From NCBI GenBank assembly GCA_977862235.1, contig OZ374557.1, forward strand, positions 3,782,001 to 3,846,000: a DNA stretch of 64,000 bases, read 5' to 3'. The notes beneath the pieces were generated by a model. That model did no database searches. It worked only from the letters and a program-made list of their open reading frames with translations, and was not told the DNA's origin. Numbering within the stretch: the stretch's first letter is position 1; each line of letters opens with the position of its first letter. This DNA comes from Dudresnaya verticillata (lineage: Eukaryota). This document shows, one piece after another, positions 16,879 through 45,572 of the stretch. Both the position numbers and the translations under genes were made by a program.

Positions 16879-17410
16879 AACACAGATTTCCGGGTTTTCA
16901 GAATCCGTGTCGCGAATCAGTCTGAAAAAATGTTCATGGAATGACGATTTATATATCGCGTTGGACTGGGAAGAGAGAGCTGAGAAGAACTGTGGAATCG
17001 GTTTTGGGATAGCATGCACGGTTGCGGAGTTATGGCGTGCTGCATATAGGGGTGAAATGTCCCGAAACTTTCGCGAAAGTTTGGAAAGTTTGGGAATTTC
17101 TGGATTAAATTTTAGCCAGAAATTACATTGCCCCCTGCTGCCCTTCGGGGGCCCCCGCCAGCGCACCGGCGCCCGTGCTCCAGCATGTCTGGCCCCGCTC
17201 GCCTCACCCCCCGGTCTGCCCTGGGCTGGGACCAAGGGCGCAGTGTCGCCCCGCACGACTGGTACTGCTTGGCCCAGATTTACCCTGGCTCACCAGTATC
17301 ACCGCTCCGTCTCGTGGCCATCATTCCACTCCGGGTCCAGTGCGGCGCCTGTGCCGCACCACCTCTACCGCCATCTCGCTTGTCATATCAGACTGCAAGC
17401 TCACCACACC
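16879..17410 (+). repeat. Left TIR of element A (~530 bp, imperfect)
   Basis: Aligns by eye with the reverse complement of 44995-45572. Confidence 0.9.
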
Positions 17411-17591
17411 CCGCTGTCTACACCCGCCCCTGCCGCCCTCCCCATCAAGCCGCGCACCTCGCGCACCAACTCTACCGCACCGCGCAGGGCATTTCAAAGT
17501 GCGCGTGAAGTCGTAGACTTCACTTCTACGACATGCCCCGCCGCGGCGGTAAGTGTTGTGCGACTGGGGGAAAATTGAGCAGGTCCTGCTC

Positions 17592-18097
17592 AAGTGCTGA
17601 AACTGCATCAGGTACTGCAGAGTGACACCAACCGCTCTACCTGCGCATGGCTGCCGGTGCGCCTTGCGTCAATCGCTTTTGCGTCGCTGCGCAAACAGCC
17701 CCCGCTATTGCCATTGCAAGCCAAACAACGCAATCCACTCGCACGAAAACAATTTCGCGTGTTATCATTGCCCTCGTATTGGCATTGCAAGGCAAATAAG
17801 AATCACTCGCACAACAACAAGTTCGCGTGTTATCATTGCTCTCGTATTGCCATTGCAAGGCAAATAACAATCACTTGCACAACAACAATTTCGCGTGTTT
17901 TCATTTCCGACGACGCCAACTGCTGAAGTGCTGAAACTTCATCACGTGCTGGACCACGACATCAACCGCTCTAACTTCAAATGGCTTCCGGTGTGCCTTG
18001 CCTCAAACGCTTTTGCAACGCTGACCAAACAAACCTCGCTATTTACATTGCAAGGCAAGAAACGCACATCACTCGCAAAGTGCCAATTTCGCGTCCT
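17592..18097. repeat. Subterminal tandem repeats (three ~68-71-bp units plus a ~170-bp duplication)
   Basis: attgcaaggcaa...cactcgcac...caatttcgcgtg at ~17713, 17784, 17852 and 18048; the aagtgctgaaact block recurs at 17592 and 17926. Confidence 0.85.
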
Positions 18098-18264
18098 AGC
18101 ACTACTGCTCAAGTATAGAAAGTGGTAGTCCTGGACGAACAGGAAAAGAAATCAGTTTCATAGCAGCTCCCAAACACATTACCCTAATCAACTTCACTCT
18201 ATACTTCCCATTCTGACTCAGTAAACTTACACAACCCCCTTTTCTACTCTGTCTATTCCTTGCT

Positions 18265-21200
18265 CTACAGATGGCTGCGGGCGCTACTGTTTGTAAGGCA
18301 CTCGCGCAACTTCTTCCGCACAGAAACTGGTAGCCTGTCATTCCTGGTGAGCGAGTCGAACTCCACAAGTACGCAATCAACGGTGACGTCTTCTTCCCAT
18401 TCCTTTGCGACCCTGCGCCTGGTTTTGTAGAACGAAGGTTTGTAAGCTGCACTGAAAACATTACCGTTGTGCTTGGCTTCATACCACCGCAACAACAATT
18501 TCGAAACCTTTCATCGTCCCCTTTCACAACTTCCATAACTTTTGCCACGTAAAAAGGACATTGCTCGGTTGCCTGAACATAATTGACGGCCGCCATTCTG
18601 TTGTGGCTGTAGGTTAGGTCCTGTGCGGGTAGTTGCTCCACTTCTGGTATCTTCGGAAGCATTTAGGGGCCTCTATGCTGTCTAATGTCCCTTCGCAGCT
18701 TCCCATTCGTCTCCGGGACGTGATCCAAGTCCCAGTGAAAAGGTTCGTTTCGATCTCTATAGACGTGATCCCTAATATTTTCCAGTTCGGCGATCTGCGA
18801 CGCCTTGAGCGCTCGGACTTCGGTGCAACGTATGCGATCATTGACCTCCTTCATATCAGGTGGGCATCGCGCTATGGTCTCTGGGGTCTTAACGAGGTCA
18901 GGGGTGAATCGTATGAAGCCTTCCTGTTTGAGAGATTTGCCACGTGCTTCTGTTACAAGTGGTTTCCAGTCATCTCCACACTGAATCTTGACGAGGCATC
19001 GCGTGCGGAATCTCGCTTTTCTGCCCATTCCCTTACCACTTTGGCGAGTAATACGAAAGAATCTGTAGTGTGAGAATGCTTCAGTCTTGCCAATACACGA
19101 ATACTTGTCACACAGCCGGAAAAGTTGGCTACCTGAAGCAACCTTGCCACCGATGGACGAGGCGTGTATGAAATGCTTAGTTCGCGAAGAAGGCAAGACA
19201 TGGTCGGCATGTCTTTTGATCGGATCCTCTTGCTTGTGCAACTGAAGGCCTGGTCGATGTCGGAATGGGTGTGGCCGATTGGGAGAAAGGAAACCTGCAC
19301 TTCATGCAGAACACCCCACGCGACTAAGCACTCCAGGTAAGAAAGCATGTACTTATTTTTTCTCCCGGGTGTAGTTTTCTAGCTGCAGTAACAGCGTAGG
19401 CTGCAGAGTGCCATGGTTATGCTTGACTGTGAGAAGGCGATGGACTGTTTCGATCATGTGATTCGCGCCGGTCGCAAACTCTCCTGTCATGACGAACAGG
19501 GATAGTTGCTTCAATGAACCGTGTTCCAATGCGCCCACAACTTTGGTTGCTATGGCATGTCCACGCGTAGCCTTCGTGCTGACCACGAACTTTGGTACTC
19601 CGAACGCTTTCTGGTCCGCGCCATCAATTATCAGTGAGCAATACTCGGAGGGATACAAAGTAGCTTTTTTCGTATTCTCCCTGTAGTAAACCCTCCCCTT
19701 TGTAACCAGCTTGTAGTGTTCCTTTATACGGAGCAGGAACGGCTCCGCAAGTCTGCGGCTTGTACCGGCCCTGGTGAGTCCAGCACGAAATTCTTCACAC
19801 TCCGAACACTTTGTGAAGCGTTGGATTTTGCGGACTTTTATGTCACTGCGGTGCTGCTTCCAGACGTGGTAGAAGTAGTTTAGTCGAGGCGGGTCTTTTC
19901 CAGGATACAGTCTCTCGTGGTCCAGAAGGAAGTTCTCGTAGACCGCAGCCTTATCAAAGTACGGCAGATGCTTCTCATCTGCGTCGGGCATGTAGCTTGC
20001 TGTTACCTCAGCGAGGCGGTTGAGGTAACTTAGTATCTTATCCCTGCCCTCACCCGGAGGCGGATACGGCACGGCATTGTCACCCTCCATAGGCCGGCTT
20101 CCACCAAACTGTTTGACTGAATATTGCAGGTCCCTGGAAAACCCAAACGCCGTCTCCAGGAACGTGTAGCATACTGGCTTACCGTCGAATTAATAAATCC
20201 ATCCGGGTCGCTGCAACAACCCGTGCAAATAGTTTCGTCGATCATGGGCGTCCATACGCAACAGTTTGCGAATCTCGGCTTTCATATACACAATCGATAC
20301 CCTCTTCAAGCATTGCTTCCGCATGCAGCACTCCTTGGAGCCCCAGTCCTCTTCATCAAGCCTTTCCAGAGCAGCATTGCGACGCTTTTGCAATACAGTA
20401 TCACCAACCCTCAACTTCTTTCTTTGTCTTGCGTAGAAGCGGTACCTTCTCTTTCGGGAGCCATTGGTCTCATCCTCAGCAACTCTGGGCGTTTTCGGGA
20501 CCCGTTCAGCCTCATATGCTGCCGTGCGTCTTCGTGAAATTGTCGCACTCGGCACGTAATCCGCGTCCTTTGTCAGGTCCTCAATTTCCTGGTCGCTTCC
20601 AGTATCTTCGTCTTCTAATATTCCATCACTTCCACCTTCCACCTCTGCGTCGCTCACCAGATCCAACGTCGCAGCATCTGATTGCTCCTCACCGTGCTCT
20701 ATTTCCGAGCCATCAGCCCCTGGCGTTCGTTCCACGTCACCCTTTGTGTTAGTACTCGCGGCCAACGCCGGGGTAGCATCAGGGTCGGGTTCTGGTGCGC
20801 CACTACTAAAACCCGAACTGCTTTCAGGCGTACGTCTGACATTGTGTACAGGGCATGGATGGGGCGTGATACAGTTCTCTTCGTCGCTTGATCCTTTTCC
20901 TCGAGAAGGAATAGATCCGACAGCCCTAGCAGAGTTTTGTTTCAGATCTGCATCGCCTGTGTCTGTCACGCCTACACGAGGATCTCTCTCTTCCACGGGT
21001 GTAGTCGTGGGTTCAAGAGACACTGGGGCCGAAGAGACTGGTAAGGCGTCCGGGAAGTTATTCTTGGATGGTTTCTGGGGTCGTTCACGCATAGGTGGCC
21101 GGCGTACAGGTGTGTATTGCAGAAGTTTTGTGACATCTTCCTCTTCATTGACTTTCTCTGGCGGTGGTGTTGAAGGTCTGTTCACCGCTGCCATTTCTTC

Positions 21201-21767
21201 AACACGATGCTGCTGTTTTGGGTGAGGAGCGGATTTGCGAACCCTGAACAGAGGGGGTGTTGGTGGGTTAGCGTCAGCCACCGCACGTTTTTCCACTCCG
21301 GAGACAGTCGGACCTGAGCTTTTTCTGCGCTCTGTATTGTAGATGGTTACGAGATCCTCAATCTGGAATAGGTCCCAGGCGTGTTTTCCAGTCTGCATTC
21401 GACTCAGTGTCTCCGGACCCGGACAAGGCGTACTGCCTGGTTTGTACTGGAACGGGTTTTCGTAGGAATTGCAGTTGTGGGGGCATCGGACGAGGTGAAC
21501 TACAACCCATACTTCTCCATCACGTTGTTGAGGTCCAAGGTTGCGCCCGTGCAGGTATGTGCTGAATCGACCACTGGGATCAACGGCACCCTCCCTAAAA
21601 TCATGAGGTCGTAGCAGGGTTGCTGTAGCAACGTGTTCCCCGTTGAGAGTGAGCATGACTCGTGCGCCGGGCTTTGTTCCAGGAAGCAGCTCATCGCCGA
21701 AGTCGTCGTCGTTCTGAACTGGAACGTTTGCTGCTTTCGAAACCTGCCCAGATGAGGCTTGGGCCAT
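18265..21767 (-). pseudogene. Sola-type DDD transposase (~1150 codons, several frameshifts)
   Basis: CCMRKQC; YFYHVWK...RFTKCSEC...H; SLIIDGADQ; LQLENYTRE(N)K; SFLPIGHTHSDIDQAFS; C-terminal FYVAKVMEV...LLRWYE beta-barrel-like module. Confidence 0.85.
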
Positions 21768-22531
21768 GTCCTACTACCCCTTTCGGCAGGGGAGTCTGAG
21801 CCTTTTGCAATTAACTAGTGCAAGATGCGCCTTGCACTCAGGGCGGGCGAAGTAAAGCAACAAAATCGATGTTCCCACTAGGGCGCGATAGCTGTGCGCT
21901 ACTTGTTCTGAAGAGCTGAAATATTCGGGAGGGCCGAGGGCGCTTCTGAAACGACACCGATGTAATACTGTTCCAGAGGCGGTGGGGCGTTCTGCATGAC
22001 AGGCTTGCGTATGCCCAGAGTTGCTACGGATCCCAGTTAAAACGACTGGTATTGGAAGGGCTTCCCTTTCGCTCTGTATGCACCACTCCATTCCGCCATA
22101 CACTATAGCTCCAGTGCGAACAAAACAGTCTGATTCGAAAGACGAGCGTGCCATATTACCAATCAGAACGGACAAGTTGTGAATCTCGAGTCCCCGTCAA
22201 TCAAGAAGCAGTACTCGGTATTGCAAAGGTACGCCCTGCAGACTGCTCTATTCCGCCATGCGACCAAAAGCGGGTAGTATTGATGGGCGTAAAGGATAGG
22301 AAATAGCATCGAGAGGGACTGAGAAGTACAACCCCGGCTGCCGGCTGCGTTGATGTTTACGTCTCGATACCCCGTAATTTTTCTTGCAGAAGAAGGACAA
22401 GTCAATCCAATGAGCAGCCGTGGGCTACAGCTGGCTTTTCACCAGTTTGCGAACATGCACCAACCCGTGCATCAAGTACCAGTCTGCAAATTTGAAGTTC
22501 GCCGTGAGACAAACGTTCCAGACTCTACCTT

Positions 22532-22804
22532 ATGCACAACATGTATCAAGAGTCAAGAGAAGGGAGGCTGCATTCCGCTCAGGAGAGAATAGCTACACTA
22601 CAGGGGGAAATCAGGACCATTCGGGTGACGGTATCGTACTTGTCGCGTGAGCTTCAACGACTAGGGTGGCCAGTTGTGTGTCAAATCAACCGTCTGCTTG
22701 TCTTCATCCAGGAGAAACTTACAGAAGCAAGGGTACATATTGCGGCTTTGCAGCGCCACCTTGCCCGCAGAAACGAGGAGTCTGAAGTCACGGAACAAGC
22801 CTGA
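22532..22804 (+). CDS. Small coiled-coil/helical-hairpin protein of element A (90 aa)
   Basis: Uninterrupted ORF with heptad pattern, divergent from the transposase. Confidence 0.45.
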   Translation: MHNMYQESREGRLHSAQERIATLQGEIRTIRVTVSYLSRELQRLGWPVVCQINRLLVFIQEKLTEARVHIAALQRHLARRNEESEVTEQA

Positions 22805-23073
22805 TGCAAACGGAAGACATAAGTCTCGAAGATGTCGAAGCGCAACTCGTTGAGCTTGAAGAAGAATTCCAGCAACTTAGGAGCGCTCAGGATGAGCTAC
22901 GTCAGCTGGTTGCCCGTCTGCAGCGAGCGACTCTGCGCATGGTTGGCAGTGTCTTCCATCGGGTCCATCGCAGTATAATAGTGGCCTTATCGCAGGCTAC
23001 GTTTGCCCTACAAGCGGTGATGACATCTTTGGAGGCCCAATCCAGCCCACAATCCTCCCGCTCCGAATCCTAG
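22804..23073 (+). CDS. Small coiled-coil protein of element A (89 aa)
   Basis: LEDVEAQLVELEEEFQQLRSAQDELRQL heptads; its ATG overlaps the previous stop (TGATG). Confidence 0.5.
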   Translation: MQTEDISLEDVEAQLVELEEEFQQLRSAQDELRQLVARLQRATLRMVGSVFHRVHRSIIVALSQATFALQAVMTSLEAQSSPQSSRSES

Positions 23074-23399
23074 AAGATCTGTTCCGGAACCTCCATGCCA
23101 CGGTAGCCGCCATTAGTAAAGATTTCTGAGCGCACATCACGACCCGAGCCGTTTCCCGCCCCATCTAGGTTGCCTTCCGCTGGGTCCCTCTACCACACCG
23201 CGGCGGCGCCTTTCTTTCCTCACCGAAGCCGGCGCCCCGTTCTTCTAATTGCAGATTCCCGTACTCGGAGCTTTCCCGACACGCCACGGGAGTTGCCGGA
23301 GTGCAATGAGGCTGAGAAAATTCTCTCTCCCATTGTGTTGAACGAGCCCAGAGGTGAGTATGCCAGTGGTTGAAAAGTATGATACCTTACGATACTATC

Positions 23400-23553
23400 A
23401 AAAGACGCCATCCTTCCTGCGGATGATGGACTCAACAACTCTGCAACAACTCTGCAGAACCGAAAGTGAGATCCCCAATTCGTTGCTTGCCGCAACGCTA
23501 CAGCATTGACGCCTTTGTAAGTCCCGAGGATTCCTTCCCTTCGCAAGATGTCA
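23400..23553 (-). pseudogene. Captured fragment of a mitochondrial carrier (YHM2-like citrate/oxoglutarate carrier)
   Basis: DILRREGILGTYKGVNAVALRQATNWGSHF matches the YHM2-family KGVNAVAxRQxTNWGSRF segment. Confidence 0.75.
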
Positions 23554-24040
23554 CTAGCCAGGTGGGGGCGTGGCTGGGGTTGGCGTAGTGGGCATTTTGG
23601 GGGGTGGTGGAGGGAGGGTTGGCGGTGGCGGCAGCTCCGTGCACAGCTCATATGCGCCCTCGCCCGGTACTTTGAAGCGCATGCGCACCGGGCGCGGCGG
23701 GGAGAGGAGGGCAGACATGGTGGTTTGGAGCAGAGGAGGTTGGGCACGAAGCAGGACATAGAGCAGGAAGGGATGGTATGCGAAGCACGCGAGTAGGCGT
23801 GCGATGCTGCTCGTGTTTCGTTTCGGTGAATGCTCCGGGCTGCGCGGCGAATAACAACTCGAGATTATTCTGTAAGCCGCGATCCACGTCAGGCACTGTA
23901 ATTCCAAGGCGATCCAGCGCTGCGCGTGGACGCGCTGGAACCTCCGCACCCTCCATCAAATCGCCTGCCCAAAGCCGCCCCGCCGACACCATCAGCGTTC
24001 GAGCCTAGCCACACCCCAATCGCCCCGCTGCACATCCACA

Positions 24041-24805
24041 ACGGAGTCGATCATCGCGCTGCAGGGCGGCGACTTCGTTGTTATCGCCGGAGATGTTGCT
24101 AGTGCCGGGTCCCTCGTCGTCATGAAGGAGGACATGGACAAGATCCATCCACTCGACGAGTGCAAACTCTTCGCCGCCGCTGGTGTCCCCGGAGACGTTG
24201 TAGAGTTCACCCAACACGTGTAGAAGGACGTCAGACTGTACAACCTGCGTTCTGGCATCACCATGTCCACCGCTGCTGTCGCAAACTACACGCGCGGCGA
24301 GCTCGCCAAGTTCCTCAGGTACGAACGGGATACTGCGGATGCACATTCGTTTTGCGTGTCCCATTGCGCGAGAAGGTCACCGCTCTAACCTTGCGTCCTG
24401 CTTATGTTTTCCCGTTTGTTGCGAGCAGAAAAGCGCCGTATCAGTGCAATGTCATGATCGTGGGGTACGACGCACCGCCCAACGGCGACGGCCCGTCGCT
24501 GTACTCGTGCGATTACCTCGGTACGCTACATAAGCTCACTTTCGCCGCGGAAGGGTATGCACAGTACTTTGTGTTATCGACGCTTGATCTCATTTGGAAG
24601 AAGAATATGACTTTGGACGATGAGCTAGTGGTCATTCGTAAGTGCATCGCTGAGGTCCAGAAGCGTCTCGTCATCAACCAGCCCCGCTTTTGTATCAAAG
24701 TTGTCGGCAAGGACGGCGTCAAGTTCATAGACTCTGCAAAGCTTCCGGGCCTGAAGGCGGATGAATCGATGACTGATGCCCCGCAGACCGCAGCCCAGGC
24801 TGCAA
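24041..24805 (+). pseudogene. PSMB2: Captured, near-complete 20S proteasome beta-4 subunit gene with intron (start ATG>ACG, internal TAG)
   Basis: ESIIALQGGDFVVIAGD...MKEDMDKI...ANYTRGELAKFLR | GT-AG intron 24319-24428 with CTAAC branch site | KAPYQCNVMIVGYD...GPSLYSCDYLGT...KCIAEVQKRLVINQPRFCIKVVGKDG. Confidence 0.92.
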
Positions 24806-25149
24806 GAGCAAAACATCCCGCGTTCCCGACAGCGTTGTCCTGTGTCTGGTTTCGTCGATGTACATCAATTCGGAACAGTAAAGCCAGCGCGCCCGCTATG
24901 TCTACACACAATTGATCTTGTTTTATTAACTTTCGTCTTATGGATCTATGTGCACTTTTCTAGATTACATTCACTCGACAAGAAACCCTCCTACGCTCTT
25001 CCGCTCTTCTGTCCTCATTCTAGCCTTTGGTACGTCTGTTTATTTTCTCAGCCAACCGTGTTGCGAAAACGATGGGAGCAATCTGGTTGGGAACCTTATC
25101 CTGCCAAACACACGAGAACACACCCGCCGTGAGAACCTCGAATACTGTA

Positions 25150-25590
25150 CTGCCTCACCGTTGATCCTTGCCGACTTTCGACATCGAGGGGACGTTGAAT
25201 TCGTCAACAGCCACTGCTCCAGGCAAGTCGAGTGATAAGAATGTCCACATGCAAGCCGCCGCAGCATGTCCCCTTCCTCAAAGCTACACAAGCACACCGA
25301 GCAGCACACATCGCCGGTCGCCCCCAACTCGGCCATTTCACCCTTCGTGAAGACAAAGGAGGGAAACATGGCGTTCAAATCCGTTTCTGAAAGCTTGTCC
25401 CGGTAAGCAGAGCCGCTTCCGGCCTCCTCTGGCGGGTGGCCGTGAACAACTTCAAAAGAATTGCCGTCGGAACACGCTTGCCCACACACTGACGAACACG
25501 ACGACGGTGAGCAAGGTCAGCGTGATCAGCAGGAACGGTAGCAATAGAAAAGTAACACCTATCTCCCATTGCTCCTGGTCACTGCGAGGC
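25150..25590 (-). pseudogene. Captured TM + RING-H2 E3 ligase fragment (ATL-like)
   Basis: CSVCLCSFEEGDMLRRLACGHSYHSTCLEQWL...SPRCR, with a hydrophobic segment upstream. Confidence 0.8.
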
Positions 25591-25829
25591 GTACAGTATC
25601 GCAGCTTCTTCTTCGCGAGCAAGCTTTCCGTGGCGCGGTCTTGAAAGCGCTCCATACGGCGATCAACGCATGGGAATACCTCCATTCGAACCCTAACAGA
25701 GAATTGTGGCGACGAAAAGCCGCCCTGACCAAAGTGCGGTCGCTGGCGCATCAACCACAGAGGCGGCAATCGATGAAAGTTGTATACTCCTATGTAGAGC
25801 ACCTCGCCCTCGACCAGACGTGTTCGCAC

Positions 25830-25935
25830 AACTTTCTGCACCAGATCGAAACCAGATCATCTTCACCGCCCGTGGCGATATGATTTCCATCCGGACTGCA
25901 CACAACGCATAAAAAGGCCCCAAAATAGCTTCGGG
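25830..25935 (-). pseudogene. Captured WD40 fragment (WDR20/CreC-like)
   Basis: [30 protein letters not shown] matches the WDR20/CreC [27 protein letters not shown] repeat. Confidence 0.75.
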
Positions 25936-26936
25936 GGCGTGGTGCGGCAGTGCGACAGGAAGCACAGTAGTTGTGCGGGTCGGCGGGGTGCGGTGGGGCG
26001 CGACCTGGCGCCAGTCGCGGGGGGTGGGCGGGAGAGGGTTGTAGCGAAACGCGGCGGTTCGGTTGCGATTGCGTTTGGGAGGGCGCTGGGCAACAACCGG
26101 ACTGGTGGAGGGACCCAGGTGTTCCGAAAGAAAAGTCCGAGAAGGGAATCAGCGATAAATCTCGTGGAAAAAATCCTGGAGAGTTATGCCGCGCGACCTG
26201 AAAAGCTATCTTGCATTCTCCATAATATGGAATAGGTCCTGGGGTCGAGCTAACGTAGTTTCTATCAAAAAGGTGTTGGGCCCGAGGCAATCGCAAAACC
26301 TATAACAGTTTTTCGACCAGTGAGAATCAAAAAGTTATTAAACAGCACACGAGCACTCGCGTTTCGGAAAACCTATCATAGGTTTTCAGATCTCGTACAG
26401 TGTACGTGCTGTTTAATAGAAATTTACGTGCGGCTTTCCGAAATGCTGTTGGTCATTCTCCATAATATTGGATAGGTTTTTACGCGATTGCAGTAATTTC
26501 GGCACTGCGGGCACTCGTCCCGCGATGAGACGCAAGTGTATTGCTCGAGTGCACCTACCTGCAAATCGAAGCTCTCGATATTCTCATAGTACTGTGACCC
26601 GACCCGCCTCGCTACTACTACTCTACCGGGGCCGTGGATGCATCATTCCTGTAGATGCATGTTGGCAGATCTTCCATGCCGCTCGACATTCATCCCATGC
26701 TCTGCAAGAGCTACAATTCGATGGAACTCTGCAGATCCGACATTGTGAAAGAGAAGTTGCTGCGGAAATGGGACCGAGCGATGATGCAAATTTTGCGCTG
26801 TGGACTTCTACCGGGATAGCGCTGTCGGTGGCAGTACATGGTCTCCAAAGAGGAGTAGCATGTGATTATGGCTTACGATGTTGCTCTATGGCGTAGGAAA
26901 CTAGTGAAGCGAACGATTATTATGCTCAACTCTGCT

Positions 26937-35730: not shown

Positions 35731-35959
35731 TACTGATACCAGACTGCGGATGACGCCGATGCTCGCAGTCGCGGGGAGAAGCATTAAGAATGGAAACCTC
35801 AAGGCAAGACGAAAGGCCGCAGCAAGCGACTCTGCCACCGCGGATTCTGCCAAGACTACTGCGAGTATTTCCGCTACTGCTGCTGATGCTCTGCAAGCTG
35901 CAGAGGGTGAGGGGTTGCATCCCACGGGCCCAGTCTCGGCAACGGTCCAAGGTGCAACC

Positions 35960-36870
35960 ATGCCCGGCACAATTGTCCTCGAGTACTTTCGCCAGATAGA
36001 GAGCGAAAACCTAGCGTGGGTGCGCGAGCTATCTCGTCTGCTTCCTGACTTTAAGGTCGGGGAATGGCGCGCTGGCAAGACCGTAATTGATCCAAACGAA
36101 GAGCTGTGGCGCCAAGTCAAGTATCTTGTAATCTGGCACATGCCAGTACCTCAAATGTTGAGCCTACCCAACCAACACGCCATTCACCTTGTAGGAAGCA
36201 GAGCCGCCCACCTTGCTCTGCATCAAATCCCGGAGCACATAACTATTGTTCGCCTGGTAGATCCTGATGTTGCTAGAGACATGGCAGCCTATGTCATGCA
36301 CTGGGTTATTCAACTTCAAATTGGCTTGGGAGAATACCTCACGTTCCAGCAATAAAAGCGATGGCAGAAACTAGCGTTCATCCCTCGGTATAGGCTTGCA
36401 GTTGGCGTCATGGGCTTTGACACCGTCGGCTCTACCGTCGGCAAGGCCGCAGCGGCAATGGAATATCCAGTATCCGCTTGGAGTCGGAACGGCGTCGCAA
36501 CAGAAGTTGTGCAAGCCTTCGCTGAGTAGCAGGCGACTTTCTGAGCTGCGTCAACGCGCTTTTTAACGTGCTCCTGTTGAGGCCAGAGACCGAGAATATG
36601 CTCGATACAAGTTTCTTCGAGAAGCTCCCTCGTGGGGCTGCCGTAATTAGCATTGGGTGCGGTGCCACCATCAATGAAGAAGACTTGCTTCAAGCTCTAG
36701 ATAATGGCCACCATCGTGCGTTTGTGGTGGATACGTTTCGCGAAGAACCTTTGCCCGCTTCATCCCCACTATGGTGTTACGAAAACATCCTCATAACTCC
36801 TCACGTCGCGGGCCGCACGTTCGCAGAGTCATCTGGTAGTGCAAATGCCCCACGTTGCAGATCAAAGTAA
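35960..36870 (+). pseudogene. Captured D-isomer 2-hydroxyacid dehydrogenase (glyoxylate/hydroxypyruvate reductase A-like), with stops
   Basis: IVRLVDPDVARDMAAYVMHWV...VGVMGFDTVG...KLPRGAAVISIGCG...DTFREEPLPASSPLWCYENILITPHVAG. Confidence 0.85.
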
Positions 36871-37088
36871 GATATATCCCCTCATTGGTGTCTATTGAAA
36901 TGCATGCCGTACGAACACAAGTGGACCGTCAAAGAACTCCGCGTCTCGAGCCGAAATTATGAAGAGAGGCTCGTCTATTTTCATTACTGCGTACTTCACC
37001 CCTTAACACCATAGTAGATTCCCTCGCAGCTAACGCAAGCTCGCATCAGTGCAAGCAGAGCTTCCACATCATCGGGTCTATCAAAACA

Positions 37089-37424
37089 ATGTCTTCGGGC
37101 CTTGGTTCAGCTCCCGCGGACATGCAAGCTGCTTTTGGAAAGTTTCACAAGCACGTCAGAGCGCAGCTGAAATTCAGACTAAACGATCGCTCGAGGAGGC
37201 TTCGGAGTGAGTATTTGCAGTTTCCACGGCGGGTAATGGACGCTTTGGGAGTCCGTGAGAGCGAAACACTCATGAATGGAAGTCGAAATAGCGAGTTGAA
37301 CCATGTTCTATCGCAACACGAGCATGACTGCAAGATTCTGGATGCCGTGTACAGGACCGGGATGAGGCAACTAGAACGGCAAGCGCGCCCGTTCGCGACC
37401 TGGAGAGAATGTGCCGTTTATTAG
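37089..37424 (+). CDS. Hypothetical 111-aa protein in element B
   Basis: Uninterrupted ATG ORF with helical, protein-like composition; no family recognised. Confidence 0.35.
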   Translation: MSSGLGSAPADMQAAFGKFHKHVRAQLKFRLNDRSRRLRSEYLQFPRRVMDALGVRESETLMNGSRNSELNHVLSQHEHDCKILDAVYRTGMRQLERQARPFATWRECAVY

Positions 37425-37451
37425 TCACATGGCATTATGCCAAGGAAAATA

Positions 37452-37918
37452 TGGAAGGTTCGGAGGAGGTCAGGAGGGCGAGGGCCGAGCAAGCTAAACA
37501 TAGCATCAGCGTCTTGTATGCCACGGCGTTCTTTGATGAGTCAGGATAAATCATGCTGGTATTTTCTATACTCAGTGCAGACAATGTATCGGTGTCGAGG
37601 TCTATATGAAGGACACCGCGGACCCCAACGGTGATGCACGGTGACAAAATGCTACCTTCCGACACAGCTCCCAAAAGGCTTGTAGAAGAACTCAGGGAGC
37701 TCCGCGCTGAAATCATCGAGGCGCGTGGAGTTGCCCTGGCTGAGCTGGATACCACTTTTTGGCTCCGGGTCCCGCTCATGGGATGGGCACGTGAAATGAT
37801 GGCGAGGGCTGGCCAGATTGGAGAAGGGGTGATGAGGGGAGCTCGGGGTGTGTTAGGGTTGCTGGGCTGGGAGGTCCCGTTGGAGTGGACGCTGGAAGAT
37901 CCTGAATCAGAGGCATGA
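37452..37918 (+). pseudogene. Hypothetical helical protein with two in-frame stops
   Basis: MEGSEEVRRARAEQ... continues in one frame into RLVEELRELRAEIIEARG... Confidence 0.35.
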
Positions 37919-39016
37919 GTGGGTTTGGATGTAAAGGGTAATTAACGAAACCTTCCTTGTGGTGTTCAACGCGTGCATACACTGGTCGCATATAGTGGTA
38001 TCATGAATCATTTTAGCAGTAGAGTACAGTCGTGCCCACAAGCCCTTCACCGCCTTTCCCTGCCGTGAGCTTACCGAGTTAACAACATTTCGCACTGCCG
38101 TCTTGTCTGACGCCGACTGCTAGGCCCTACAACCCGCCTTCGCTCACGGTACCACACGTGGCTTGTCACGCGTTCCGCCCCCTGTCGCATCTTTGGGAAG
38201 CCCCTGGAAATCACTAAGGCCGCAGGAGTAGTTGCGCAGGTACTGAGCTAGATGTGGAGGCGGTTGTTGGTTCAGGCGCGCATCTGTACAGCTTGAGAAC
38301 GAGAAAACGGTGAAGATTGGCGATGCTGGGATAACCGCAGTGGGATAAGAGCGCGGTACAGATTCGGGGGTGCCAATCGAGCTGTGCACCACTGCGAAGT
38401 CAAAATTCAGCAGTGGCATGGGAAGTGGGGTCGGTAGCGGGGATCAGGGTGTGCGCGCTGGTGGGCATCCGCGGTAGTAGGGCTGTCCCTGGTCATAAAT
38501 CTCGCGGGGCAGGTGCGGGAAACGGGCGACGAGGCAGTCTGTATGCGTTCCCGTACAGACGCGCACAGAACAGTACAGCAGGTGCGCTGGGAAGGCGTGG
38601 CGCGGCAGAGTAGGGGCTGTGGAAACAGGCTCGCGCACGCCTCTGCGAGGCTTTGCGCGGGGCGGCACGGTACAATCGGGGCATTGTGTGCCATGGGGGG
38701 GCGTGCCGTGGCATCAGGGAGTGGGGGGCGAGCGCATGGGGCAGGTGGGGACCGGGTGGACCAATTTGGCCCAGACCGGACCACACAGTGGTCCGGGCGG
38801 GCCAAATCGATGCAAAAAATTAAATTTCGGAAAACCTGGAAATATTTTGTGGAAATTCACGCAAACCGCTATAACTTTGGAACAAATGGTCTGTTGACCA
38901 ATCGGATTTCACCATCGTACTCAGGGCACGCTCCCCTTTCCAACGATACCATAAAATAGCTACTTGACTCCAGTCTGTTTTCAAAGTCAGATTCTGGAAT
39001 GGCTTAAATGGGTGTT

Positions 39017-39260
39017 TCAAGCAGAACACATCGAGTCTAAATTTGAGATGGTTGAGAAACTACTGGACATCGGAGAGGCGGATGATGGTCTGTTTGTGCA
39101 GGTACAATGGCTTGGTCAGCCAGATAAGGTTGACTGGACATGGCAGTCGATTGCACAGCTGTATGAAGACGTCCCTGAAAAATTATAGGCATTTTTGCGC
39201 AAGACGCGAAAAGGAAAGCTCGCCAAGAAAGCACGAGCTGCACTACATCTCTCTGAAGAG
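39017..39260 (+). pseudogene. Gypsy-D chromodomain-like C-terminus
   Basis: FEMVEKLLDI...LFVQVQWLGQPDKVDWTWQSIAQLYEDVP. Confidence 0.85.
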
Positions 39261-39301
39261 TAATGCACACGCCGAAATACTCCAGCGTATGCATGGGGCC
39301 G

Positions 39302-39579
39302 TGTAGAGAGTTGTTAGAAACAGAACAAGCCGATAGATTCAAGCCGTGAACTTGAAGCAGAACAAGCCGATAGCTTTAAGCCGTGAACAGTAGTGTTTAA
39401 TTTTGAATGTTGCGTGGTTCAAGCCAGACGTTCTGGATTGGCCGTGAACCGCTTTGTGCTCTCGAGATGAGCAGCAATACAGTAGTAGATAAAAACTCTC
39501 TCTCCTCCGAGGGAAAGAGGAGAGAGGCAAGACTTTGTGAACAACAGAGTTGGAGTGCTAGGACGAGCCGGAGTTTACA
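39302..39579 (+). repeat. Gypsy-D 3' LTR
   Basis: Direct repeat of 30080-30356, preceded by ATGGGGCCG and followed by TSD ATCC. Confidence 0.95.
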
Positions 39580-40132
39580 ATCCGCTTGTGCATGGATTCC
39601 GCTCATACCAATCGTGGACAGATACATGCTACAGTCTCGGTACTAAACTCTTCAGTCTCAGGACTGCAAAACCCGACCAGGATGTGACTACTATGAGAGG
39701 GTCTGCAGCACAAGAGAGATCCGGGCTGCAGTCCGTACAGTAGTCCTATGCTACCCGAAAAACAGGCTGCGAGATATTCACGACCAAATCATGCGCATGG
39801 TTGCGAGTCGCAGGTCATACGATTGTACAGGTATAGTATAGTAATTTGGATTGAGCTCCTATCCACACTCAAGGTTAGACCACGCGTTGGCGCCAACTCG
39901 GCACCAACCGAAACTGTCTTGGGTGACTATAGTGAAACTGTGTATCTTGATACCTCTCTGTACATTTGTGCAGAAATGCCTGCACCCTTAAAGTCGGACT
40001 CTCCACCCTTTTGTGCACAACTCATGAGCGCTGGAATCTGGAATCTCGAAACTAGGCGCTTCACAGCCACCCGTACTCATTCTAGCGAATTCCCAGAGGT
40101 TGCACCTATTCCGTAGAGTACTACTGTTAAAA

Positions 40133-40675
40133 ATGTCGTCGCACAACGCTTCTGGAGGGAGAGAAGAAGTCGAAAACTTACAAGGCGAGACCCTGAACCT
40201 ACACGATTTTAATAACTCGGGAGAAGAGAGCTTAAAGGAGGCAGTCGAGCGCATGGGAGAGGAGAGGTTTGTGGGCATAGTCAGTCGGGCAAGGCAGCGT
40301 CAGATGCGTATCGTCGGGTTGGAAGAGCTAGGAATACGTCTCTATGCCACGTCTATTTTCAAAGCGTTTCATGAAAGGGTGTGCGGCGTCAGCGGAATTG
40401 AAAGTGCAGACTTCTCCGTCTCTCAACAGTACTTCGATGGAAACTATAAGTTCAATTACAGAGGAAAGAAATTTTATGAGCGGCGGAGGATAGAAAGGCT
40501 GACTCTTCTGGACCTATGGAAGGGCCCTCACTGCGGATGTATGGATGGTGAGGGAGATAAGTCCGAGGAAAATCCGCGGCGCCTAGCGAACCTGATTATA
40601 CGTAGCACCGGGTGCTGCGTTCACGTGCCATTCTTGAAGAAAAGGCTACAAGACCTGAAAGAAGCATTGGAGTGA
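40133..40675 (+). CDS. Hypothetical 180-aa protein of element A (Cys/His-containing C-terminus)
   Basis: Intact ORF with HCGC...CCVH; divergent from the ParB-MTase once Gypsy-D is removed. Confidence 0.5.
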   Translation: MSSHNASGGREEVENLQGETLNLHDFNNSGEESLKEAVERMGEERFVGIVSRARQRQMRIVGLEELGIRLYATSIFKAFHERVCGVSGIESADFSVSQQYFDGNYKFNYRGKKFYERRRIERLTLLDLWKGPHCGCMDGEGDKSEENPRRLANLIIRSTGCCVHVPFLKKRLQDLKEALE

Positions 40676-41478
40676 TGGCGTTAGCCAACAGTTTGATAAA
40701 TTTCTATTTCCTGTGTCCTAATAGTGGGAGTGTACAACCTAACCATTTCTGACTACTATCACATTCAATATTTCACTGCTACTGTAATAGAACGACTGCG
40801 TTCATCCTACGGAACAGTATAGGACAATTTTGTTTCATGGGGACGAGTACGTCTACTACTCGGACGACAGTCTCTGGATCCTCTGACGGATTACAGCAGG
40901 GTGACGGGATCAGTTTCTGTACTAGCATCGTCGTATTGTGGATCAATTTCCGTTGTCTTCGTAACAGTTTGATTGGTATATTACGTCATTAGTCAGGTGA
41001 CATCATAATTTACGCGTGGTATTGAGCTGTGCACATAAACCTGGAACGACCCCTGATGATTCAGCAGACACTCCCTGCTATAACAATAATTCGCGAGGGC
41101 CTCAGTGCCATCCATGGCCATGGTGTTCGATAGGAACCGTAGAGGCATAAAGTTAATACGGTCAAGCGTTTCGACCCCTATTTGTCCCTAAGAGACCCTG
41201 CTCCGTTAAAACCGTACAGTGGCGTAACTGCGCATAGTATTCCATGTTCTAACCCGTGTTCGTCATCCAACAACATCCGTAATACTATAATAACGTGTGC
41301 GTGAGACACAGAGCACTTCCCGCCAATACAAAATCGCAACTGTTGCGGTCATTTTGCTCTTCCTTCTAACTGTAACATTCTTGTGCGGAAAAATCGTGGA
41401 CATTGGTTTACGGGTCATACAAAACATAGTTGCTGCAGCAAGGATACTGTCGCATGTTGCACAAAGCGCTCCTCGTCT

Positions 41479-42055
41479 ATGCAACCAAAACTTTCACCAA
41501 CCATGTGTATTGTTAGCGTGGATCGCAACGGGGCACCATTCGATGGAAAATGCCAGGACGAGTCAATTGAGGATCGCCTTGATGCCATGTTCAAAACACT
41601 TGACGGGAGTTTGTCCATGAAGATGGCCAGAAAGTCGAGGCAGTGGGCTCACGAAGTGTGCACACGAAGCTTTGAGTGAATCAGGCATCGAACTGGTCGA
41701 GGGCAGGGACAGTGAAGCTTTTCAACGTTTCTGCCAGAATCTGTCGCACGCTGAAGCGCGAAACCACAGGCACGAGACAAGGAGTCTTAGCGAATTGTAT
41801 CCCCTACTACGCCGAAAAGTCCGAGTGGTGAAGGAGGGAAGCTATGCAGGGGAAAATGCTCTGTTACTGGAATATTATATATCTGAGACAGTCCACGGGG
41901 CTGGAGAAGAGGGTTTTCATTTGGACCGGTTCTGCCGTCTATTACTCAAGACGAGATATGTAGAGATGAATGAAAACACCGCAAGGGAGATGCGGTTGCT
42001 GCAAGTCAGGCATCTCACAGTTCAGGTCAACAATTTGACTCGAATGTACGAATGA
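41479..42055 (+). pseudogene. Hypothetical protein with KOW-like motif, frameshifted near 41675
   Basis: RKVRVVKEGSYAGENALL; two overlapping frames. Confidence 0.35.
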
Positions 42056-42561
42056 GGCGCTCCGTGAAGGTGTTAGCAGCAGTAGTACTACTACCACCAT
42101 GAAAAAGGTAGTAACGATTGGATAGTCTGTCGTTTCCTTGCTTTGAGAGCTCAGGGGTTCTTTTCCTCTTCCCATACATTAAAGGCTGCAAGAAAACCGC
42201 TGGCACTGCATTGTCCAACTTTTACCCAGCAACAGGTATCTTCATCCCCAGAAGTAAACTGTGACGACATCCGCGTGACATACGAGCATTCCAAAATACT
42301 TCGAGACGAGGTCCAACAAATGCAACGTATGGTGCCAGGTGCAAAGATCGAGGAATTGGTGCCATGACACATTGCCTTTTGCGAACGTCACAGCGAATAA
42401 CAGGACTTGGACGTTTCCATGTAGATGAGCAGTAAAGGATTTCCATTACTGTCGACATTTATCTCTTGACTTGACGCTCCCAACCTCTGCTGAGATACTT
42501 GTTCCAACTCCACCAGGTGACCGGCTTTGTCTGCGACAGTCCACATTCCACAGAATTAAAG

Positions 42562-42876
42562 ATGGAAGTCGACCTGCATCCCCCTGCACAGCCAACACCT
42601 ACCATGACCCGCAACGCAATCCGACAAGCATACGAACAAGTGGTACTACTTCGCATCGATGTGCGCGCCCAGCGCGACATCGTGAAGGACTGTTTAAGGG
42701 AGGCTCGCGAGTGCATGGAGGAATTCGAATTCCTCATGCACTGCTACCGCCACTTGAGGCGGGAAGCTACGGCGGTCAGGACGGCTGTCGCCAGAGCTGT
42801 GCGCTCGGTATGCGCGGAGCTGTGGAGCTGCACGAACCCCTTAAGCAGCGAAGATGAAGAGGAGTTAATAGTGTAG
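42562..42876 (+). CDS. Small helical protein of element A (104 aa)
   Basis: Intact ORF with amphipathic helices and acidic tail. Confidence 0.4.
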   Translation: MEVDLHPPAQPTPTMTRNAIRQAYEQVVLLRIDVRAQRDIVKDCLREARECMEEFEFLMHCYRHLRREATAVRTAVARAVRSVCAELWSCTNPLSSEDEEELIV

Positions 42877-43069
42877 TGAGAATGTCAAGGGATAGCAGTG
42901 AATAGATAGAGTAGAAAACGGGGTTGAGTAAATTTACTGAGGCTGATGAACTCTTTTTTGAACGCACTTCCCGCTTGGCAAGCGGGAGGGTGGAAAATGG
43001 CTATGTTACAGCAATACGGAACCGCGAGGAAGACGGACGTAGATGGTGTCGTGTTGGGAGGAGGAGGTG

Positions 43070-44995
43070 ATATTAAACTTTATAGGACGGTTTTGAGTGC
43101 ACCGACATCGGCAACAAAAGGCCTATGAGACAGCACACTATCGCATGGGAAGGAGGAAAAACGACTGTGTATCTTCAATGCGTGCTATTGAGTTGAAGGG
43201 GCGGAGTCGGGAGGCTGACTGCGTTGAAACGAACGGCGGCGAATGTCTTGAATGCTCTGGGAGACGTCACGTCGTGTGGCCGAGGTGGGGGCAGGCTGGC
43301 CCAGCAGTGCCAGTGTTGTGGAAGCGATTCGGACGCGTGCGGCGAGAGCGGGATCGGAGGGTGGGATCGGGAATGTACCCAGATGCCAGCGGACTGCGAG
43401 ATGGCGGTGAGCGGACACAGGTAGTTCCAGAGCGGGAGCAAGGCGGCCAGACGTATAAACAGGAGCAGGCCGTCGCCCTTGGAGGTCAAGGCGCCAGCGT
43501 AGCAGGTGCAGGGCGTGCCGCGCAGCTGCGGACTTGGGGCAGGCAACGCCGCTACGAAGCGAGTGGTCAGGTGAGCGCCAGAGGGCATCTAGGGTCGTGC
43601 GGGCAGCCCAGGAGAGCTTAGGGGAGCGGGAAGATGAGAGCCGGCGTAGGCGCAGTACCAACATTCTCTGTAGGTTGGACCGTCTGTCGGCGGGGTGGAC
43701 GATACTGAACAGGGCACGCAGCTTCGATAAACGACGCCGCGGCATGGACTCGGAACGTTGCCATATGGAAGTGCGGAGTTAGCAAGATTCAGCGTCCCCG
43801 ATGTGTTGTTGGGCGAGGGCGTCGAGTGGAGAGAAGGCGAGGGCATACTCGTAGACGGGTTGCAAGAACATGCGAAACATCGACCTGGAGGCGGCTACTG
43901 GCATCGAAGAGGATACGTGGCGGAGACGCTTGAGGTTGCCCAGAAGCCTCTTCGCCTTCCGGGTACGAGCGACAGTCGAGGCAGAGCCAATTCCTGTGGT
44001 CGTGAGTTCAGCTCCAAGGTAGGTCGCGGAATCTGTTACAATTGAGTCCTCTCCATTACACTTCAGCCTTACAGACGTAGGACGGCGGCCATGGCGAGTC
44101 GGTAGAAGAATGAAGCACTTCGTGGAGTACCAGACCATGTTGTTATCGCTGGCCCAATTATCGCAGACGCGTAGCGCGGCGCGAAGGGAGGCGACTGAGT
44201 CCACATGGAGGAGGCAATCGTCGGCCAGAAGCCTTCCCGGTAGCTTCTGCGGGCCGCGTCGGAGTTCATGACAAATTACCACTGCGAGTGGATCGATATA
44301 CAAGTTGAACAGCTCGCAACTGAGCGCGGAGCCTTGTGTGGCGCCATTGAGGACCATAGCGGTATGTCTTGTCGCGTCGCTGGCCTTAGAAACTTGCAAT
44401 GGACCCAGTGTACAGCTAATCATCGCAGAGATGGCTGTTGGTAGCAGTGCATGGCAGAGGGTTAACGGCTTATTACGATCCACTCGGCCCTACGCGCTTT
44501 TAAGGTCAAGAACAGCGATGTAGTCGTCGTTTTTCTGTATAGAATCTTGCGCAAGTACCAAAGCCATATTGGTACCGAGCCCAGCTTGGAAGCCAAGCTG
44601 CATGGGATGAGACGTGAAGTGCTTCCCTACCTCAATGGCAATTGCACGCTCAATGAGCTTCCGCAAATGCGATAAAGGGCAGATAGGGCGGTAGCTTGCG
44701 GGCTCATTTCGGGGGCCGTGCTTGTAAACGGGAATGAGCAATCCATTTCGCAATTCGGCAGGAAGGATACTGTACATGCCGCAAAGTCGCCAAACTTCCG
44801 TGAGGAGCGCGGCCGCCAGCTTGGGTGTGAGCTTCAGCGTTTCCACGTGTACGTTGTCCACGCCAACAGCTTTTCCAGGTTTTGCGTCGTCAATAGCCTT
44901 CAAAAGGCTGTGCTTGAAAGTGAATGGCACAGCGAACGGCTGTGGGGAGGGGGTGCTAGGTGCTGCAGTGGTATTACGGATGTGATCCGTGAACG
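43070..44995 (-). mobile_element. 5'-truncated non-LTR (LINE) retrotransposon RT fragment
   Basis: KAVGVDNV...IPVYKHG...SYRPICPLSHLRKLIE...QLGF...VLDLKSA...GATQGSALSCELFNLYID...LADD. Confidence 0.92.
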
Positions 44996-45572
44996 TGGTG
45001 AGCTTCAGGCGCAGGTGAAATTTGATAGGGCATGCGGGGAGGAGGTGCTGTGCGAGGAGCGCGCTGCAGTGGACCTTGGAGTGGAATGATGGGCATGGGA
45101 AGGGGTGGTACTGGTACCAGCACGTGATTGCGTGAGCGCCGCGCACGACTGGGTTACCCCAGATTTACCCTGGCGGCCAAGCAGTAGCAGTCATGCGGGG
45201 CGACACTTCGCCCTTGAACACAGCTCAGGGTGGGCCGGGGATGCGGCGGGCGGGGCCAAGCGTGCTGAAGCACGAGCGTCGGTGCGCTGCCAGGCGCGCC
45301 CGGGAGGGCAGCAGGCGGCAGTGCAATTTCTGGATAGATTTTAATTCGGAAATTCCGAAAGTTTCGAAACTTTCACGAACGTTTCGGGGACATTTGCCCG
45401 TATATATGCGGCATGCTGTAACTCCGCAACCGTGCATGCTATCCCAAAACGGATTTTACCATTCATCTCAGCTCCCTCTCCCCAGTCTAACGCGATACAG
45501 AAATCTTCATTCCATTAACATGTTTTCAGACTGATTCGGAACACAGATTCTGAAAACCCGGAAATCTGTGTT
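44995..45572 (-). repeat. Right TIR of element A
   Basis: Reverse complement of 16879-17410; ends ...GAAAACCCGGAAATCTGTGTT. Confidence 0.9.

Follow-up and report, generated by a model that had tools for sequence, protein, structure and literature searches.

A decayed giant Sola-type transposon with a ParB-like methylase gene and pieces of host genes, inserted in a Gypsy element of a probable florideophyte

The window, i.e. the whole stretch of 64,000 nucleotides that was analysed, contains a transposon of 28,694 bp that comes to 19,190 bp when a 9,504-bp LTR insert is subtracted (Table 1). Between its terminal inverted repeats (TIRs) lie: a transposase pseudogene, a block with pieces of host genes, a pseudogene for a ParB-like protein with a methyltransferase domain, the LTR insert with a second and smaller transposon inside it, a right arm with short ORFs, and a LINE fragment.

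Table 1. Features of the giant element and its borders in window coordinates
Feature	Position	Strand	Remarks
Left target-site duplication (TSD), CACA	16875..16878		
Left TIR, AACAC terminus	16879..17450	+	strong until ~17274, homology weaker to ~17450
Subterminal repeats	17586..18106		68-bp unit x3 (17698-17905) inside 182-bp duplication; short inverted motifs in units
~50-bp motif	18217..18264	-	directly beyond transposase 3' end; inverted copy at 42894-42941
Sola-type DDD transposase pseudogene (DUF7869)	18268..21770	-	DUF7869 match; fold taken from relative P0001
Host-gene cargo block	22200..26900		
Prefoldin match	22786-23070	+	weak
Mitochondrial-carrier piece	~23430-23560	-	
Proteasome beta-2 gene	24041-24810	+	near-complete; intron retained, start codon lost, one stop
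RING finger piece	~25170-25300	-	
WD40 piece	~25840-25910	-	
ParB-like + beta-class N4C/N6A methyltransferase pseudogene	26940..29890	-	three stops, one frameshift; motif IV DTPY
Nested Gypsy-type LTR element	30080..39579	+	internally deleted; TSD ATCC, TG..CA ends
Second, non-autonomous Sola-type element (7.2 kb)	31787..39016		inside LTR insert; AACAC..GTGTT termini, TSD TCAA
Short ORFs of the right arm	39580..42900	+	40133-40672, 41621-42052, 42556-42873; candidate decayed accessory gene(s), unsupported
LINE reverse-transcriptase fragment	43100..44960	-	Pfam RVT_1; 5'-truncated, adjoins right TIR; ends approximate
Right TIR, GTGTT terminus	45000..45572	-	
Right TSD, CACA	45573..45576		

The ends of the element could be placed to the nucleotide. 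The left terminus starts at position 16879 with AACACAGATTTCCGGG and the right one closes at 45572 on the reverse complement of AACACAGATTTCCGGG. Over about 396 nt the outer TIRs show 333 matches and 62 mismatches (blastn: 399 nt, 83.5% identity, E 3e-114; ungapped: 170 nt at 88%), which amounts to ~84% identity over about 400 bp, after which the homology fades near 570 bp. The inner segment still aligns with a score of 83, against a maximum of 45 among 500 shuffles, so the TIR length of ~0.5 kb given in an earlier, sequence-only reading is reasonable, the inner edge being ragged. That reading had also claimed exact boundaries and the restoration of a host Gypsy frame upon excision in silico, and both claims were borne out: the insertion interrupts a Gypsy RT-RNase H frame precisely at the CACA duplication, one continuous frame runs across that duplication from the left flank to the right flank, and the homologous site is uninterrupted in two other Gypsy copies within the window (at about 7.5 kb and 62 kb).

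The subterminal repeats, which lie inward of the left TIR, could be binding sites for proteins. The ~50-bp motif is present in inverted orientation on the two arms, each time after the last ORF (87.5% identity, E 2e-9; score 74 versus a maximum of 43 in 200 shuffles). CpG and TpA depletion within the element showed nothing unusual. An origin of the ends from two independent elements, or a chimeric assembly, might be read from TIRs that are only 84% identical and from left and right subterminal regions that differ. We consider this highly improbable, given the identical 4-bp flanks (chance of a random 4-mer match within the window 0.4%), the host frame that continues across 28.7 kb and the common motif inverted on both arms. 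Moreover, the TIRs of the smaller transposon (~480 bp, 94.5% identical) are less alike than the LTRs that enclose it (277 bp, 98.2% identical), so imperfect TIRs appear to be natural here.

The transposase pseudogene specifies, from the N-terminus onwards: a domain of ~95 aa (21665-21351), a low-complexity linker, a Cys-rich region, an RNase H core and a C-terminal BAH-like domain. The three motifs highlighted in the sequence-only reading (IDGADQ, QLEN and GHTHSDIDQ) are all there, and they occur in 86, 105 and 118, respectively, of 121 relatives; 151 relatives were recovered overall. The residues D535, D618 and D658/D660 are kept in at least 95% of the alignment (A1), and the second Asp is Glu in the window copy, which also contains stops at 20190 and 18663 and frameshifts near 19355, 19115 and 18540. 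As read from these lesions, the transposase of this copy is dead. The structure model of a relative (P0001) matched Mos1, retroviral integrases, IstA and TnsB (Z 7-9), and the predicted core, which folds compactly in the DDE manner, comes closest to Mos1 and the integrases; a search of PDB sequences with the transposase profile gave no match at E ≤10. Pattern searches returned 5 matches in viral contigs, with 0 relatives among them, and 33 in prokaryote genome contigs, of which 5, on short MAG contigs and with 24-31% identity, likely represent eukaryotic carry-over. Literature searches on DUF7869 and on a Sola transposase with a BAH domain found no paper.

Members of the Sola superfamily are characterized by a DDD transposase, a 4-bp TSD and TIRs of 11-1124 bp (PMC10741241, consulted in part). 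The window provides a DDD triad in an RNase H-like transposase, long TIRs and two 4-bp TSDs, CACA for the outer and TCAA for the nested AACAC-ended element, and the Sola-type identity put forward from the letters alone was thereby sustained. Within the superfamily the element is likely of the Sola1 type: the motifs from the second Asp to GH and their 35-residue spacing agree with positions 57-124 of the Sola1 HMM in the available part of PMC5751038, an agreement judged by eye and without a score or an aligned Repbase Sola1 sequence. The Sola2 group was rejected on motifs, those of dictyostelid Sola2 differing by eye from the window transposase, and on TIR length (12-26 bp there versus ~400 bp here). 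Sola3 elements have a TTAA target and GAG termini, to which neither CACA/TCAA nor AACAC conforms. The AWWT/AWDT target preference of insect Sola1 does not cover CACA and TCAA; both end in A, like the biased TSDs of a Sola1 element of the brown alga Ectocarpus (PMC12477816, in the portion available). Since that element is filed as Sola1 and shows another bias, the AWWT-like preference is not Sola1-wide.

Could the Sola label be mistaken, and the transposase come instead from EnSpm/Plavaka, Mutator, Zator or a DUF7869 lineage of its own? Giants of red algae whose accessory genes resemble the one found here have been assigned to Plavaka, Mutator or Zisupton (bioRxiv 10.1101/2025.02.11.637652, seen in part), and the terminus here includes CACAG, which is EnSpm-like in Ectocarpus according to the accessible text of PMC12477816. 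When the element is read from CACAG, its flanks become AA/TT without a duplication and the host frame is lost, and an EnSpm/Plavaka CAC terminus, which goes with a TSD of 2-3 bp, was rejected on that ground. The 4-bp TSDs of two elements, the by-eye agreement with the Sola1 profile and the DDE fold nearest to Mos1 and integrases likewise speak for Sola, and we regard another superfamily as quite unlikely. Wider searches for relatives of the ends were negative: a TIR profile built from the four AACAC-type ends of the window found nothing in 85 related loci, and the ends of ten loci (L001-L010) aligned to the window TIRs with only z about 3. The supplement files of Majorek that were searched contained no Sola entries, and a literature search by title and start of abstract, outside Repbase, returned no description of a red-algal Sola.

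The accessory gene lies upstream of the transposase gene on the same strand, and its broken product matches PF01555 weakly (E 0.0015). Its homologues form 202 clusters, and of the 39 long ones 37 match PF01555 and 32 pass the curated cut-off. A profile search of PDB sequences matched beta-class methylases and no ParB chains; the N-terminal region, which we take to be ParB-like from a motif of the ParB type, gave weak DndB matches only (E 0.018 and 5e-4). A PF01555 methylase adjoins the transposase in four of the eight related loci of at least 8 kb (L003, L012, L020 and L021) and was found neither in the other four nor in the 77 shorter loci. Judged by this recurrent linkage, the gene is a true accessory of the transposon family, in line with its role in the sequence-only reading. 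Both main genes are pseudogenes, and the window copy can make neither protein any more. In L003 the two genes lie head-to-head about 2 kb apart, and this locus groups with the window transposase (clade support 100) in a quick, unrooted tree of 120 rows without a named Sola reference; the rows comprised one protein in three from the first 121 together with the loci that had at least 150 core columns, L010 and some short loci being excluded. The distant loci L020 and L021 carry methylase-SET fusions.

The pseudogene ends in a ~95-aa domain (27242-26946) that is common to the N-terminus of the transposase (HHalign 99.9%) and with which many transposases begin. The domain had no fold match above Z 3.7; the weak resemblance that it does show is to SH3-like barrels, the C-terminal domain of KorB among them (Z 3.5). 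Motif IV, by our own pattern, is canonical DPPY in 8 of the 39 long relatives, altered in 11 and without a pattern match in 20, and since the window copy has DTPY and so few relatives are canonical, many members of the family may not methylate. The accessory protein might then be mostly a DNA-binding or bridging factor, which pairs the distant ends or recruits the transposase and keeps the methylase fold for DNA recognition. Such a role would suit the altered motif IV of at least 11 relatives and of L003, the domain with which the protein ends and the SH3-like and KorB resemblances. We find it doubtful as a general account, with DPPY and the SAM-binding motif intact in P0189, P0192 and P0193, the closest relatives of the window methylase, with the large share of long relatives above the PF01555 cut-off, and with fold matches that all stay below Z 4. 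A more elaborate and rather unlikely model is a coupled machine in which methylase and transposase pair through the SH3-like domain, so that element DNA, once bound and marked with 6mA or 4mC, passes to the transposase; the BAH-like tail would read silent chromatin and steer insertion into other transposons, and the same ends would mobilise Pack-type shufflers of host genes.

The host-gene block contains a proteasome gene that is 73-80% identical to P0143 and has its best named matches in Gracilaria and Palmaria; since its intron is kept, the host genes were likely copied at the DNA level. Of the nested LTR element only an integrase-end piece remains, and the 7.2-kb transposon inside it contains a C-terminal transposase fragment (33814-33996, +), a WD40 piece, a 2-hydroxyacid dehydrogenase gene and acidic repeats. 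Pieces of host genes, as in Pack-type elements, thus lie between the TIRs of both the outer and the nested element, and since the relative has them too, capture appears to be a trait of the family. The size of ~19 kb called native in the sequence-only reading is right as the length without the LTR insert, and that length still includes the LINE fragment (~1.9 kb) and the pieces of host genes (~4.7 kb). The 'several accessory ORFs' of that reading (39.6-43 kb) found no credible homologue: one Pfam match at E 0.028, none in related loci, and, for one ORF, Atlas scores below 0.9.

From this one copy, the cargo would have travelled with the element. Alternatively, a smaller two-gene Sola of ~12-13 kb (TIRs, transposase, methylase and right arm) may have jumped, the host-gene block and the LINE having arrived after insertion like the LTR element, and the cargo-carrying giant lineage would then partly be a pile-up. 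The 9.5-kb insert with its own TSD does show that the window copy gathers insertions, and the LINE piece lacks its 5' part, as is usual for inserted LINEs; in L003 the gap between methylase and transposase has no ORF of at least 150 aa identified as cargo. Against this, the block at 22.2-26.9 kb is not bounded by inverted or direct repeats of at least 30 nt, one 38-nt pair aside, and a scan for a LINE TSD gave none that was convincing, the candidates of 10-11 bp being rejected as in conflict with the TIR homology. The nested relative also holds host-gene pieces between its own TIRs, and Ectocarpus giants with fixed nested insertions still transpose (PMC12477816, in part). We regard this later pile-up as less likely than transport as a unit.

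Our preferred reading, with a probability of about 0.8, is that the window holds a single, decayed copy of a giant cut-and-paste transposon of the Sola type, likely Sola1, from a probable florideophyte host. It is inserted in Gypsy pol between a 4-bp duplication and equipped with genes for a DDD transposase and for a ParB-like/N4C-N6A methylase that likely binds and marks the DNA of the element itself. The transposase would bind the long TIRs, excise the unit and insert it with a 4-nt stagger. The ParB-like part of the accessory protein would bind the subterminal repeats, where the methylase would modify A or C, and this methylation would likely serve to preserve the activity of the element or to make it identifiable. 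The host genes were probably copied in at the DNA level in the manner of Pack-MULEs, and deletion derivatives such as the nested element are likely mobilised in trans.

The overall design, a giant Sola with a ParB-methylase, is already in print for Sola1-1_Ec32 of Ectocarpus (PMC12477816, 2025; available portion), and Sola elements, mostly of 2-9 kb, include a minority above 15 kb (PMC10741241, likewise), so that giant size as such is not new. The two elements, compared by description rather than by sequence, are alike in: giant size (21.5 kb versus 19.2 kb here), ends that start with AAC (AACCG versus AACAC), long imperfect TIRs (282 bp versus ~400-570 bp), a 4-bp TSD ending in A, and an accessory gene (~1,000 aa in Ectocarpus) that combines an N4C/N6A methylase with a ParB-like domain, the latter putative here. 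They differ in that methylase and transposase are on opposite strands there, as in L003, and on the same strand here, and in the probable red-algal host and identifiable captured host genes of the present element; neither the domain common to both proteins nor the BAH-like tail is mentioned in the available portion of that source, which does describe, for other Ectocarpus families, nested insertions as well as non-autonomous giants resembling Pack-MULEs. Giant elements of the Plavaka (EnSpm) type, which carry PAG1-3, are described from red algae, Bostrychia among them (bioRxiv 10.1101/2025.02.11.637652; main text). They are likewise giants, 17-19 kb long; PAG2 has a PF01555 methylase and PAG3 a ParB-like domain, their tandem inverted repeats have been suggested to serve as binding sites, and the accessory genes swap between TE families. 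Unlike the window element, they have a transposase of another superfamily, with Sola absent from that main text, and they have fusions of ParB with a 2OG oxygenase and of the methylase with SET, whereas the ParB-like part and the methylase are one protein here. Plant Pack-MULEs carry pieces of host genes (PMC6431247, in part), and they depend on a Mutator transposase with TSDs of 7-12 bp (PMC10741241, in part) instead of a Sola-type enzyme with 4-bp TSDs. The host gene pieces of Pack-MULEs, introns included, sit between long TIRs, as they do here, and are moved in trans.

With the present element, the giant Sola and ParB-methylase design described in brown algae reaches a large and likely red-algal clade, represented by the 151 transposase relatives and the 202 accessory-gene clusters. 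The element adds captured host genes, a nested 7.2-kb relative with AACAC ends, the shared ~95-aa domain and a BAH-like transposase tail, and identical AACAC termini are also found on a non-autonomous element that captures genes. The shared domain and the BAH-like tail offer two handles on how very long elements pair their ends and choose their insertion sites. If the element does methylate itself, this would be an epigenetic mark of bacterial type, carried by a transposon in a eukaryote, which has so far been only a proposal.

The outer element, a Sola-type transposon lying in a Gypsy pol gene, was found to be a real, well-bounded unit that is delimited by terminal inverted repeats (TIRs) and sits at a 4-bp duplication. 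The TIRs matched over 170 nt at 88% without gaps (repeat finder) and over 399 nt at 83.5% (blastn), and the inner segment aligned with a score of 83 against a maximum of 45 in 500 shuffles, so that the repeat is strong over about 400 bp and fades near 570 bp; of the ~0.5-kb TIRs claimed in the sequence-only reading the reach therefore stands, the strong part being shorter. CACA is present at both flanks (a 4-mer matches by chance in 0.4% of cases) and a single Gypsy RT-RNase H frame continues from flank to flank across it, which together with the TIR alignments bears out the exact boundaries, the target site duplication (TSD) and the restored host frame that had been claimed. The homologous site, where empty copies had been proposed to be sought, is uninterrupted in two other Gypsy copies of the window. 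Beyond the last ORF of either arm lies a ~50-bp motif, the two occurrences being inverted relative to each other, and the 68-bp units occur on the left arm only, with the LINE fragment, for which no convincing TSD was found, at the equivalent place of the right arm. The element would have moved by cut-and-paste, mediated by its DDD transposase. The surrounding Gypsy elements, at least three, have diverged (66-80% nucleotide identity in common parts) and some are nested or inverted.

Features of the outer element and its surroundings (window positions)
Feature	Position	Strand	Remarks
Outer element	16879-45572		both termini start AACACAGATTTCCGGG, inverted relative to each other
68-bp tandem units	17586-18106		within left TIR region; internal inverted motifs
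Transposase pseudogene	18268-21770	-	pieces match DUF7869
~95-aa common domain, transposase N-terminal start	21665-21351	-	
Host-gene block	22.2-26.9 kb		mitochondrial-carrier, RING and WD40 pieces, proteasome beta-2 gene
Accessory methylase pseudogene	26940-29890	-	one gene, three stops and one frameshift
~95-aa common domain, methylase C-terminal end	27242-26946	-	
Deleted LTR element	30080-39579		TG..CA ends, LTRs 98% identical, TSD ATCC
Nested TIR element	31787-39016		AACAC..GTGTT termini as in outer element, TSD TCAA
Long repetitive Asp/Glu/Ala-rich ORF of nested element	32275-34031	-	
LINE RT fragment	~43.1-45.0 kb		abuts right TIR
Separate 2.2-kb element	52193-54372		776-bp inverted repeats, 97% identity, ends not AACAC
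Surrounding Gypsy elements	2188-9476, 45577-51100, 54985-63772		

The transposase is dead, as is evident from its stops (20190 and 18663), its frameshifts (near 19355, 19115 and 18540) and the replacement of the second Asp by Glu. With the full-length relative P0001 as query 151 relatives were recovered (120 listed), and among the first 121 stored proteins the first-Asp motif was found in 86, Q.DN..REN.N in 105 and GHTH.D.DQ in 118. AlphaFold modelled P0001 with confidence from residue ~280 onward; Foldseek gave no match for this model at E ≤0.001, and upon re-alignment the highest of the top chains were Mos1 (Z 8.9), retroviral integrase cores (Z 8.0, rmsd 3.0, 131 residues), IstA and TnsB. 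These matches, of middling Z, mark the modelled core as a DDE fold. Residues 866-968 match BAH domains (EBS Z 7.1, SHL 6.8, DNMT1 BAH1 6.5, ORC1b 6.4, AIPP3 6.3), and Y872, F891, W892 and W914 of this tail are kept in 112-120 of 123 rows; that the tail would read histones is our guess, predicted from the fold alone. The 4-bp TSD and the DUF7869/DDE transposase agree with the Sola-like assignment made earlier. The Sola1 profile contains, within positions 57-124, DNC..QNKN and FL.PGH[ST] 35 positions after the Asp (PMC5751038), and our transposase looks alike by eye, with the same spacing of 35 (D618 to G653), whereas the dictyostelid Sola2 sequences displayed in PMC3627910 look unlike it. The AWWT/AWDT target preference given for insect Sola1 (PMC3845634) fits neither CACA nor TCAA.

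That a methylase is aboard was confirmed: among the matches listed, PF01555 was found in 37 of the 39 accessory homologues of at least 800 aa (32 passed the curated cut-off), and intact relatives show that the broken pieces form a single gene. The profile of the long homologues retrieved from the PDB the beta-class methylases DpnA, CcrM, PvuII and RsrI, and no ParB. For the N-terminal part (202 homologue clusters) we use the label ParB-like, on the basis of a ParB-type motif, of weak DndB matches in the gene or its relatives, and of a literature parallel. DPPY was found by pattern in 8 of the 39 long homologues; another 11 showed altered motifs and 20 gave no match. By eye P0192, a relative, carries DPPY, and the window copy has DTPY, so catalysis appears uneven across the relatives. 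A mostly non-catalytic binding or bridging factor is rather unlikely; the accessory protein would bind the element's own DNA and likely methylate it.

Transposase and methylase have a ~95-aa domain in common, present in 13 of the 141 transposase proteins stored, fragments among them, and in 13 of the 39 long methylases. Alignments of the two disjoint sets, both of them selected with the same seed, matched at 99.9% probability (E 4e-31). The model (pLDDT 79) is a small beta structure with weak, SH3/Tudor/chromo-like fold matches (best Z 3.7). The domain ties the two genes historically; a coupled transposase-methylase machine with chromatin-guided insertion is unlikely.

Among 85 related loci (80 metagenome stretches, the best of 524 confirmed, plus 5 MAG contigs) the methylase adjoins the transposase in four of the eight of at least 8 kb (L003, L012, L020 and L021; a raw count) and in none of the 77 shorter ones. 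L003 falls within the clade of the window copy (support 100) and the other three are distant in the tree; in this linkage the window copy is not peculiar. L020 (4516-5970) and L021 (2360-5743) carry methylase-SET fusions beside distant DUF7869 transposases, similar to PAG2, the PF01555 accessory gene of giant red-algal Plavaka elements, which suggests one accessory-gene pool common to several superfamilies. In L079 (1-9819) nearly all of a 9.8-kb DUF7869 element is present: TIRs of 516 bp lie at the two ends of the contig, the transposase is followed by a Tudor-domain ORF, and the opposite strand has two further ORFs. In L030 (9342-10574) an endonuclease-VII-domain ORF adjoins the transposase; it resembles a Polinton-type gene and may be an adjacent gene, not cargo.

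Without the LTR insert the outer element measures 19,190 bp, in line with the ~19 kb native length proposed earlier, LINE fragment and host-gene pieces included. The several accessory ORFs of that proposal gained no support: no credible homologue was found for the right-arm ORFs at 39.6-43 kb. The proteasome beta-2 gene is nearly whole, and its retained intron, the ACG at the start-codon place and one stop point to DNA-level capture followed by decay. It gave 46 matches among 47 candidates (identity up to 80%), the best named ones being from Gracilaria domingensis (66%) and Palmaria palmata (66-67%), against 43-46% for named land-plant and animal proteins; the host of the element is accordingly a probable florideophyte red alga. 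That the cargo piled up after the insertion is somewhat improbable; the host genes would rather have been captured into the element, the derivatives of which would move in trans. The nested element, which lies inside the LTR insert and has TIRs 94.5% identical to each other and weakly similar to the outer ones (scoring 65, where 200 shuffles reached at most 40), is an independent second case with a 4-bp TSD ending in A. It contains a C-terminal fragment of a Sola-type transposase, a WD40 piece and 2-hydroxyacid dehydrogenase pieces, and is therefore a non-autonomous, gene-carrying relative. The window as a whole forms a nest of transposons.

The design of a giant Sola element with a ParB-methylase was already published in 2025: Sola1-1_Ec32 of Ectocarpus (21,549 bp) has AACCG termini, a 282-bp imperfect TIR, a 4-bp TSD that tends to end in A, and a ParB + N4/N6-methylase gene of 1104 aa, and the families described there include nested insertions and Pack-MULE-like giants (PMC12477816). 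Sola elements >15 kb are on record (PMC10741241), and in red algae giant elements of the Plavaka, Mutator and Zisupton types carry accessory domains of a related kind, which pass between TE families (bioRxiv 10.1101/2025.02.11.637652). The type found here is absent from the covered text of PMC4738411, which treats eukaryotic adenine methylases. The literature search returned no paper on DUF7869, none pairing Sola with a BAH domain and, by title or abstract start outside Repbase, no red-algal Sola, some of which Supplemental Table 6 of the Bostrychia preprint may list. The outer element is a dead copy whose two genes, both broken, belong to known biochemical types; what it adds to the published design is the ~95-aa domain common to the two genes, the BAH-like tail of the transposase and the nested Pack-type relative.
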